DNA of 28,425 nucleotides from Patescibacteria group bacterium (GTDB lineage: Bacteria; Patescibacteriota; Patescibacteriia; UBA9934): the NCBI GenBank assembly GCA_030916555.1, contig JAUPWK010000018.1, positions 1-28,425 of the forward strand, read 5' to 3'. The notes beneath the pieces were generated by a model. The model was not told where the DNA came from, searched no databases, and saw nothing but the letters and a program-made list of their open reading frames with translations. Positions within the stretch are counted from its first letter, which is position 1; each line of letters opens with the position of its first letter. Positions 14,948 to 15,496 of this stretch are shown here, one piece after another. The position numbers and the translations under genes were made by a program.

Positions 14948-15496
14948 TTATTTAACCAGATATAAATAACGAGTTGTATAAGTGTTAACAGTTGAGGCGA
15001 TTACTGAAACATGTTCACGCGCTTGAGCAATATTGGGAATTGGTGTCTCCATGAAATGGAGTGGCTTATTACGCCTCGCTTCATACAACTGAGCTAGAGC
15101 GACCAGATCTCGCTTCGTAATATGTGCTGGCACAGCCTTTGGTTGAGATAAACTCGCAATGCACACTTCTTGATATTTACTGCTGCTGATTAGTTGATCA
15201 AGCTTATTACCTAATTTTTCTTGGTCGGGGCTGAAACTCTGATCAGCTTTACCTAATAGGTGTATCAAGAACCCTTCTAGCAACTTCGCCGCGGATACAA
15301 CGAATGGAATGTAATCGTTATAGCTCGTTCGGGGCGAGCGATCGTAAGTGGCCAAGTTTTCATGCATTTTAGCTACGTCCTCCATCAAACCAATCATCTT
15401 TCCCCCATCCTGCAACCGTACGGTGCTATTGAAATATGTTGTCGCCGCGGGACCGAAGCACAGTTCTATCAAGCTCAGATCGACAAACGGAGGCAT
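14948..15496 (-). CDS. Putative HEPN-domain RNase (similar to the RnlA/LsoA C-terminal domain)
   Basis: [17 protein letters not shown] helix plus a RRNKPLH (R-N-x3-H) HEPN motif; 4 nt after the grpE stop and 1 nt before the dnaK start. Confidence 0.6.

Follow-up and report, generated by a model that had tools for sequence, protein, structure and literature searches.

A stand-alone RnlA/LsoA-type HEPN domain protein, predicted to be an endoribonuclease, encoded between grpE and dnaK in the heat-shock operon of a Patescibacteria group bacterium

Results

A 182-codon gene lies between grpE and dnaK

We analyzed a 28,425-nt stretch of DNA from a Patescibacteria group bacterium (contig JAUPWK010000018.1 of assembly GCA_030916555.1; hereafter the window), in which the hrcA-grpE-dnaK heat-shock operon carries an additional open reading frame (ORF) for a 182-aa protein, P0001 (14948..15496, minus strand), a stand-alone HEPN domain protein of the RnlA/LsoA type and a predicted endoribonuclease. 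The operon lies on the minus strand of the window and runs in the order hrcA, grpE, P0001, dnaK, three small ORFs and dnaJ. The repressor gene hrcA (240 aa; 16016..16738, minus strand) comes first; it shares 37-89% identity with the hrcA of relatives, and the hrcA-grpE order is constant. The genes on either side of P0001, grpE (172 aa; 15501..16019, minus strand) and dnaK (636 aa; 13036..14946, minus strand), are 80% and 94% identical to those of the closest relative, G014. The source genome comprises 808 kb in 96 contigs and is 91% complete, and its closest GrpE matches in GTDB genomes belong to Candidatus Uhrbacteria or Patescibacteria.

Both junctions of the P0001 gene are exceptionally short. 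The grpE stop codon (TAA, 15503-15501) is followed by AATT and then by the P0001 start codon (ATG at 15496), leaving a 4-nt gap, and a single T separates the P0001 stop codon (TAA, 14950-14948) from the dnaK start codon (ATG at 14946), a 1-nt gap. These coordinates agree, on the minus strand, with those of an earlier annotation made from the letters of the window (the original prediction), which had also judged the ORF to be more AT-rich than dnaK. The GC content of P0001 is 0.443 (0.437 at third codon positions, GC3) vs 0.499 (0.526) for dnaK and 0.526 (0.566) for grpE, and the gene is moderately AT-richer than its flanking genes. A contig from an independent freshwater study (run X5) spans positions 14500-15719, including both junctions, with zero differences; the gene arrangement is therefore no assembly artefact. 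P0001 is probably translated by termination-reinitiation coupling, because neither P0001 nor dnaK has a clear Shine-Dalgarno sequence.

The operon is headed by a sigma-70-type promoter, TTGACA-16-TATAAT (16785..16812, minus strand), that agrees with the consensus at 12/12 positions. Its -10 box lies inside the spacer of a predicted CIRCE (controlling inverted repeat of chaperone expression) operator, the binding site of HrcA (16773..16799). The operator is a perfect 9-N9-9 inverted repeat, TTAGCAGTC-N9-GACTGCTAA, the arms of which match CIRCE (TTAGCACTC-N9-GAGTGCTAA) at 8/9 positions each, with one compensated change per arm, and this operator, again with a spacer that encloses the -10 box, is found upstream of hrcA in 43 of the 49 related loci. 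The locus thus has the features of a member of the HrcA/CIRCE regulon, with CIRCE at the promoter and hrcA in the operon. The promoter/operator and terminator scan upheld the earlier view that a CIRCE promoter at 16785-16812 is followed by no terminator before dnaK: on the minus strand, the only terminator-like site between promoter and dnaK is the CIRCE repeat itself, and a scan from the promoter to the end of dnaJ adds only a weak site within dnaJ. P0001 is very probably co-transcribed with hrcA, grpE and dnaK from the CIRCE-controlled promoter.

P0001 aligns with the catalytic residues of RnlA and LsoA

When 1.8 billion cluster representatives were searched exhaustively with phmmer, one true homologue of P0001 emerged, the 189-aa protein P0003 (E 7e-6). 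The two proteins are 25% identical over 150 residues (pairwise E 2e-15) and have the blocks KLLEGFL, LGNKLDQ and RN...HF in common. Word-indexed homologue searches of 5.8 billion proteins with P0001 and P0003 each returned the query only, and searches of JGI metagenome contigs, IMG/VR viral contigs and GenBank phages yielded no relatives. Another phmmer match, the 2941-aa repeat protein P0002 (E 2e-11, 7 stretches), was rejected as a chance short match, 'DQSF.P...(L/V)G..L', that recurs because the protein has more than 20 tandem repeats. P0003 has a sub-threshold match to PF20797 (HepT-like_2; E 9e-4), and the profile of the P0001/P0003 alignment (A1) gave chance matches only when compared with PDB sequences.

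The relationship to RnlA and LsoA emerges through a set of proteins from the Candidate Phyla Radiation (CPR). From 400 genomes of the phylum, 24 stand-alone CPR ORFs were recovered with the hidden Markov model (HMM) PF19034 (RnlA-toxin_DBD), and 17 of them were aligned (A2). All 17 match both PF19034 and PF18869 (HEPN_RnaseLS), with E values of 2e-6 to 4e-6 that are near the cut-off, and the A2 profile matches residues 196-342 of LsoA (PDB 5HY3; E 7e-4). When A1 was compared with A2 by hhalign, the two profiles matched with a probability of 94.8% (E 5e-8, 124 columns), vs a maximum of 3.1% among the controls (40 column shuffles and one reversed profile). P0001 itself does not reach the curated cut-off of either PF19034 or PF18869, and its link to RnlA/LsoA is transitive, via A2 only.

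In the merged 19-sequence alignment of A1 and A2 (A3), residues D61, K71, E74, G75, F76, L77, G96, R142, N143 and H147 are invariant, which argues that the motifs they form did not arise by chance. The motifs are the two that the original prediction had singled out, and both are found in the translation: R141-R142-N143-K-P-L-H147 (RRNKPLH; codons at 15056..15076, minus strand), which contains the HEPN Rx4H catalytic motif, and D61...K71-L-L-E74-G-F-L77 (residues 61-77; 15266..15316, minus strand), a helix with the second half of the active site. The expected conservation of RNxxxH is evident from R142, N143 and H147, which are unchanged across the 19 sequences, and the Rx4-6H motif R142-N-K-P-L-H147 is also kept in P0003 despite its 25% identity. 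Counted via the A2-LsoA alignment, K71, E74, R142 and H147 fall on R243, E246, R305 and H310 of LsoA, the equivalents of RnlA R255, E258, R318 and H323; RNase activity and toxicity of RnlA depend on every one of these four residues (PMC8266594). P0001 thus has an RnlA-type catalytic tetrad in which K conservatively replaces R at the first position.

Predicted structures support the HEPN fold

Two kinds of structural model point to the same fold. The ESM Atlas contains the exact P0001 sequence, with a single-sequence model of pTM (predicted template modelling score) 0.79. The structural neighbours of this model are clusters of PF19034/PF18869 proteins (TM 0.62-0.70 across some 150 residues). 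The feature neighbours of P0001 in the atlas belong to the same families. AlphaFold2 (AF2) gave an unusable model from the single sequence (pLDDT, the predicted local distance difference test, 38); with A3 as input it produced a bundle of eight helices with a pLDDT of 79.7 and a pTM of 0.78. In an exhaustive VIA-align search of 48,161 PDB chains, LsoA ranked first (5hy3_A, Z 11.6, root-mean-square deviation 3.3, 148 residues, chain positions 172-345), followed by RnlA (7aex_A, an NRD-HEPN fragment, Z 10.6; 6y2r_A, Z 10.3). These three chains alone exceed a Z of 8, standing 2.4-3.7 Z units over the next row (7.9), and other HEPN structures (HI0074, AF_0298, HepT SO_3166, ST0689 and Las1) reach Z values of 6.6-7.5. 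Both the VIA-align result and the independent ESM model thus identify the all-alpha helical bundle of HEPN proteins. A search of the atlas with the AF2 model returned weak HEPN-like rows only (HEPN_RiboL-PSP and DUF4145; TM about 0.5). Because the whole of P0001 aligns with LsoA 172-345, the N-terminal domains of RnlA are absent. An internal start codon, M34 (with GGGGGA upstream), was rejected as the main start, since the N-terminal helix (residues 17-30) is kept in P0003 and A2 and is part of the modelled fold.

Could P0001 instead be a generic helical bundle whose likeness to the HEPN motifs is coincidental? Helical bundles reach middling structural Z-scores by chance, P0001 has no direct HMM match, and a Foldseek search of the PDB came back empty. 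Yet the ESM single-sequence and AF2 models both rank RnlA/LsoA first, the top three PDB chains are all RnlA/LsoA and clear the next row by the distance given above, the profile-profile match far exceeds the shuffled controls, and all four catalytic positions line up. We therefore regard a coincidental likeness as very improbable. In the comparison with RnlA/LsoA that was proposed with the original prediction, the profile-profile match and the exhaustive structural search both gave RnlA/LsoA, and Foldseek gave nothing.

A symmetric homodimer was predicted with a score of 0.81 vs 0.00 for the best control. This clearly passes the mark, which was attained by 20 of 30 proteins whose structures were solved as pairs and by 1 of 23 whose structures were solved as single chains. 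The predicted interface comprises residues 59-61, 63-65, 67-68, 70-72, 74-75, 78 and 146-149 and would place the K71/E74 helix and H147 of one subunit next to those of the other, so that the catalytic motifs would lie at the dimer interface, as is typical of HEPN proteins. In the canonical HEPN dimer of RnlA, R255 is buried in the interface and R318 and H323 are exposed (PMC8266594); the P0001 dimer, as modelled, resembles this form. Taken together, the fold, the profile-profile match, the catalytic tetrad and the predicted dimer bear out the earlier assignment of P0001 to HEPN proteins of the RnlA/LsoA type. We consider the fold call solid and regard P0001 as a minimal HEPN domain of the RnlA/LsoA type whose active site is complete.

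The grpE-dnaK junction is a variable slot

The P0003 gene, on a 1.3-kb wastewater contig, is packed between the same neighbours, with the sequence stop, 2 nt, ATG at its junction with grpE and again at its junction with dnaK. The neighbours are 74% (GrpE) and 91% (DnaK N-terminus) identical to those in the window, vs 25% for the RNase. Either the RNase has evolved much faster than its neighbours and has been lost in nearer relatives, or distantly related members of one family landed in this slot on two occasions; in both cases the pattern is a hallmark of a conflict or accessory gene rather than of a fixed chaperone partner. The idea that homologues recur inside grpE-dnaK operons was correct for P0003, the only homologue, and failed elsewhere: P0001 has no homologue in any of 18 same-genus genomes (0/18), and the two-member profile found none in a further 161 genomes sampled from the order (0/161).

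In the closest relatives, G014 and G003, the grpE-dnaK gap measures 6-19 nt and the slot is empty; gaps of 5-56 nt are found in many species of the group. Other genomes hold unrelated cargo at this position. In G002, a sister species of the same genus, the slot encodes a 183-aa protein with a Cys4 zinc ribbon and a DUF4145 domain (L011:945-1496, minus strand; G002:C3), which matches Pfam (1e-11) and, over nearly its full length, the PADLOC model PD-T7-4 (1e-9), that is, RAZR (ring-activated zinc-finger RNase). Its gene starts 1 nt past the grpE stop codon in a segment with a GC content of 0.41 vs 0.52 for the whole locus, and BLASTP detected zero similarity between this RAZR-like protein and P0001. 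Four same-genus genomes carry members of a family of membrane proteins (95-113 aa, no Pfam match, alignment A4) whose consensus has a short Cys/Pro-rich C-x4-C-P-P segment between two predicted transmembrane helices. G012, G007 and G013 have one copy each and G001 has three in tandem (L014:1049-1387, minus strand; L017:1166-1495, minus strand; L012:2026-2346, plus strand; L019:512-1407, minus strand, the three tandem copies). The slot of G001 also has another ORF, that of G010 an unrelated 100-aa ORF, and in the more distant G043 an Hsp20 gene follows grpE. In a relative from run X6 (grpE about 91% identical at the DNA level), the sequence beyond the grpE stop (window position 15507) starts with ATGAATTTAGAGTCAATTGCC and continues for at least 995 nt that match neither P0001 nor dnaK; it looks like another slot occupant. 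In most insert-bearing genomes, the inserted DNA has a higher AT content than the sequence on either side.

The absence of the gene in relatives, the empty slots of the closest ones and the unrelated cargo elsewhere speak for an opportunistic insertion at a hot spot and not for a partnership between chaperone and RNase. We conclude that the P0001 gene is strain-specific accessory cargo, not a regular member of the operon, and that the grpE-dnaK junction of Uhrbacteria is a small swappable slot which has captured at least two unrelated HEPN RNases.

The slot has further features of its own. Non-coding spacers of 100-216 nt with internal inverted repeats occupy it in L009 and L063 (124-nt gap), L010, L028 and L032; they could be decayed inserts, or small palindromic repeats of the kind that is widespread between CPR genes, both of which they resemble. 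The two junctions of an insert are alike within each genome: in the window (14940-14960 and 15490-15510) the left one reads GTTAAA-ATTATG and the right one GTTAAATAATATG, and in L033 (500-515 and 1070-1085) the 9-mer ATAAATATG flanks the insert on both sides. The stop codon of P0001 coincides with the AAATAA that ends grpE in relatives with an empty site. This paired likeness could be a duplicated stop-spacer-start left by insertion, or could reflect convergence on coupling signals.

A mobile gene of this kind might also be a neutral hitch-hiker, an inactive or decaying HEPN remnant that is kept since its deletion would disturb dnaK expression. Strain specificity, AT-richness and the lack of regulatory signals of its own are all compatible with such a remnant, and the 100-216 nt spacers of several relatives could be its decayed end products. 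The reading frame, however, is intact and identical in an independent sample, the catalytic and core residues are kept at 25% identity and across 19 sequences, and confident predictions were obtained for both fold and dimer. A remnant without function is thus improbable.

P0001 has no recognizable antitoxin

P0001 had been described as lacking an antitoxin, and this holds as far as sequence-based detection in a 91%-complete genome can show. No ORF lies between grpE, P0001 and dnaK, where the 4-nt and 1-nt junctions leave no room for one, and PF15933 (RnlB) has zero matches in the genome. The position taken in rnlAB and lsoAB loci by an adjacent cognate antitoxin is taken here by grpE and dnaK. 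Two overlapping ORFs on the plus strand (15348-15599 and 15362-15565) were rejected as antitoxin candidates, having neither a promoter nor homologues.

The original prediction had filled this gap with the chaperones themselves: DnaK and GrpE would restrain the RNase in place of an antitoxin, and their titration by unfolded or phage proteins would set it free. Circumstantial support comes from the missing antitoxin gene, from the gene order and junctions that tie synthesis of the RNase to that of GrpE and DnaK, and from the analogy with Ire1/BiP and sacsin (PMC3710099). The contents of the slot speak against such a guard. The sister species holds a RAZR-like RNase there, from a family whose known activators are phage proteins, not chaperones (PMC13017515), and membrane proteins occupy the same position; with occupants this varied, a place in the slot does not imply partnership with DnaK. 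Nor do RNase and chaperones co-vary, the flanking genes being highly conserved and the RNase very divergent. A toxin guarded by DnaK and GrpE is accordingly improbable, slightly more so than the inactive remnant considered above. The unfolded-protein-response-like module that the original prediction also raised is likewise unsupported.

Two Pfam-detectable HEPN families are not generally linked to dnaK operons

In about 400 genomes of the phylum, we asked how often HEPN genes lie within 1.5 kb of hrcA, grpE, dnaK or dnaJ. Among RnlA-DBD-like genes none did (0/24), and among DUF4145 genes a single one (1/30), which adjoins hrcA on the opposite strand (G327; L146 = G327:C1:710195-713455). These counts are no more than chance, so the two Pfam-detectable families are not generally tied to the operon. 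We found no description of a HEPN gene within a grpE-dnaK operon in the literature searched.

The A2-type proteins (L034-L057, 24 genomes) are 160-180 aa long, contain the motifs DYSFLVFPFAKAYEGFLK and WKRGRNLVFHYFP and have stable neighbourhoods. In family f61 their genes lie next to mnmA and a gene for a membrane-anchored protein, and in family f22 next to genes for a CPBP-type protease and a PBP, in 5 of 5 genomes. Such stability suggests a vertically inherited function that is possibly non-defensive.

These neighbourhoods bear on whether P0001 is a stress-response RNase, either non-toxic or mildly toxic, that slows translation or clears specific RNAs while the chaperones work. Besides the A2 family, with its housekeeping-like and stable surroundings in several CPR families (the f22 genomes among them), the location in an HrcA/CIRCE operon with coupling-type junctions favours this view, as do the presence of the sole homologue, P0003, in the same slot, the proposal that HEPN RNases 'buy time' and the architecture of sacsin (PMC3710099). 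Against it stand the absence of the gene from the 18 same-genus and 161 other order genomes, the empty slot of the nearest relatives and the unrelated cargo elsewhere, and the 25% identity of the homologues vs 74% for GrpE and 91% for DnaK, which is unlike a conserved physiological partner. On balance we consider a stress-response RNase unlikely, though it is the alternative to be taken most seriously.

Other features of the operon and a second CIRCE-like site

Downstream of dnaK, a 129-aa ORF (12568..12957, minus strand) is present in many Uhrbacteria: 9 of 19 related loci have it in the same position at 50-80% identity, and there is an additional weak match (26%). Judged by this distribution, it looks like a regular operon member, unlike the HEPN gene. 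Two small ORFs of patchy conservation (68 aa, Cys/His-rich, and 58 aa; 12172..12557, minus strand) precede dnaJ (349 aa; 11121..12170, minus strand), the last gene of the operon, and a strong 14-bp GC-rich hairpin past dnaJ (11084..11118) is the probable operon terminator.

A second CIRCE-like site, TTAGCACTC-N9-GAGTGCCAA, lies elsewhere in the genome (G000:C48:5574-5600; about 1501-1527 of L170), directly upstream of an ORF with a ClpB-like N-terminus. Its position suggests that clpB may belong to the HrcA regulon of this organism.

Discussion

P0001 as cargo of a heat-shock operon

We favour, with moderate confidence, a reading in which P0001 is an accessory single-gene conflict RNase of the abortive-infection or defence type, carried as slot cargo and expressed from the heat-shock promoter. 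This reading builds on the gene structure, the fold, the conservation of the motifs, the predicted dimer, the lack of an antitoxin gene, the operon signals, the distribution of the gene and the variability of the slot, and would add to them RNase activity, co-transcription, translational coupling and a role in defence.

The steps might be as follows. A bare, promoterless reading frame would have been inserted into the recurrently used grpE-dnaK slot of Candidatus Uhrbacteria; with junctions of 4 nt and 1 nt, such an insertion would be transcribed from the HrcA/CIRCE-controlled promoter. Synthesis of P0001 would go up under proteotoxic stress, probably via coupled translation. The protein would then pair symmetrically, the K71-x2-E74 helix and the H147 end of R142-x4-H147 from both subunits coming together as in the canonical HEPN dimer, and this dimer would cleave RNA, presumably without the need for a metal ion. 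Since basal transcription of a dnaK operon is substantial and an unrestrained toxin would not be tolerated, P0001 should either have a narrow specificity or stay latent until a trigger acts on it. In RnlA, the dimer has to change its form. P0001 may likewise require a trigger or a change of state, in a RAZR-like manner.

Several observations weigh against an accessory conflict RNase. The dnaK promoter is busy, and an antitoxin-less toxic RNase expressed from it needs a restraint that is as yet unexplained. No defence genes flank P0001, and PADLOC does not recognize it; Pfam and NCBIfam likewise returned nothing, the best Pfam row being RecC_C at E 0.05. PF19034 and PF18869 have zero matches to P0001 at E values up to 10, and these two models and the A2 HMM have zero matches in the genome that encodes it. 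The first position of the active site is K instead of R. Foldseek, run with the good AF2 model, found nothing in the PDB at E <=0.001, and the AF2 alignment includes the A2 family, so this model is not fully independent of A2, in contrast to the ESM single-sequence model. The A2 relatives reside in housekeeping-like neighbourhoods, and the wider family therefore need not be defensive. Finally, the sequencing runs that hold the locus are freshwater metagenomes, all of them DNA and none RNA.

A bolder extension of the accessory-RNase reading holds that heat-shock operons of CPR/Patescibacteria serve antitoxin-less HEPN RNases as sensors of infection or proteotoxicity. With the chaperones titrated by unfolded proteins or by large amounts of phage structural proteins, HrcA would leave CIRCE and the RNase would be made along with GrpE and DnaK; it would then stop translation, either buying the chaperones time or aborting the infection. 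If so, the repeated capture of HEPN proteins, of the RnlA type here and of the RAZR type in the sister species, would be adaptive and not hot-spot noise. The idea fits the anatomy of the operon and an older hypothesis that links HEPN proteins to unfolded-protein stress, in which HEPN RNases were proposed to 'buy time' for chaperones after such stress (Anantharaman et al., 2013, PMC3710099). The same authors noted sacsin, a protein in which Hsp90-like modules and a DnaJ domain occur together with a HEPN domain (PMC3710099). We nevertheless treat it as speculative and rather doubtful.

An accessory conflict RNase in this position would be of interest in several respects. P0001 is a bare RnlA-type catalytic domain that stands alone, is invisible to family databases and sits on the heat-shock promoter of an ultra-small uncultured bacterium. 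If it is active, RnlA-type RNases can be restrained without an antitoxin, and an enzyme of 182 aa would be a tractable minimal example. If the slot is a mere tolerant landing site, it illustrates how promoterless accessory genes in tiny genomes borrow the signals of essential operons. To our knowledge, a coupling of RNA cleavage to folding stress by HEPN proteins has not been examined since it was proposed in 2013. The locus raises the testable question of whether streamlined bacteria couple RNA cleavage to protein-folding stress in the way then suggested (PMC3710099).

Comparison with known systems

RnlA and LsoA are textbook anti-phage toxins, for which the extra domains and an unstable antitoxin are thought to be required. 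P0001 has the fold of these toxins (5HY3, 7AEX and 6Y2R; PF19034 and PF18869) in common over about 145 residues (Z 10.3-11.6), and it shares both elements of the active site, a basic-x2-E-G helix and R-x4-H on another helix. Its predicted dimer buries the K71/E74 helix and H147, and the canonical RnlA dimer buries R255 (PMC8266594). The differences are equally plain. P0001 consists of the catalytic domain only, with 182 aa vs 357 aa; it lacks the N-terminal TBP-like (or RNase H-like) domains that define the RnlA family, as well as the NRD domain. It has no adjacent RnlB/LsoB, carries K for R at the first catalytic position, is too divergent for a Pfam match, and is encoded in a chaperone operon, not a toxin-antitoxin operon. 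Since P0001 departs from rnlAB/lsoAB in the Pfam HMMs, the N-terminal domains and the antitoxin, we treat it as a divergent variant that stands alone.

HepT/MntA and other HEPN toxin-antitoxin pairs share with P0001 a HEPN domain with an Rx4-6H motif; P0001 lacks an MNT partner gene, and HepT-type structures score lower, at a Z of about 7. RAZR (PD-T7-4) resembles the predicted RNase P0001 in being a HEPN RNase of about 180-210 aa that is encoded by a single gene and has no antitoxin. It has been shown experimentally to act in abortive infection and is latent until phage proteins activate it (PMC13017515). The RAZR-like gene in the same slot of G002 makes it a functional analogy for the slot cargo. 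RAZR nonetheless belongs to another HEPN family (DUF4145, R-x7-H) and has an N-terminal phage-sensing zinc finger, and P0001 has neither; the combination of Cys4 zinc ribbon and DUF4145 is found only in the G002 occupant.

The stand-alone RnlA-DBD-like proteins of the CPR (A2) have the same size and single-domain architecture as P0001 and share its motifs, DY..(V/F)..AK..EGFL, G..L(N/D) and RN...H followed by F/Y. They differ in sequence (about 15-23% identity to P0001) and in setting, with genes by mnmA, a PBP or a CPBP protease instead of in the dnaK operon. Clusters of 150-200 aa proteins of this kind appear in the ESM Atlas as 'RNase LS, bacterial toxin DBD domain-containing protein'. P0001 comes nearest to this uncharacterised family, and databases already contain single-domain RnlA-DBD proteins under automatic names.

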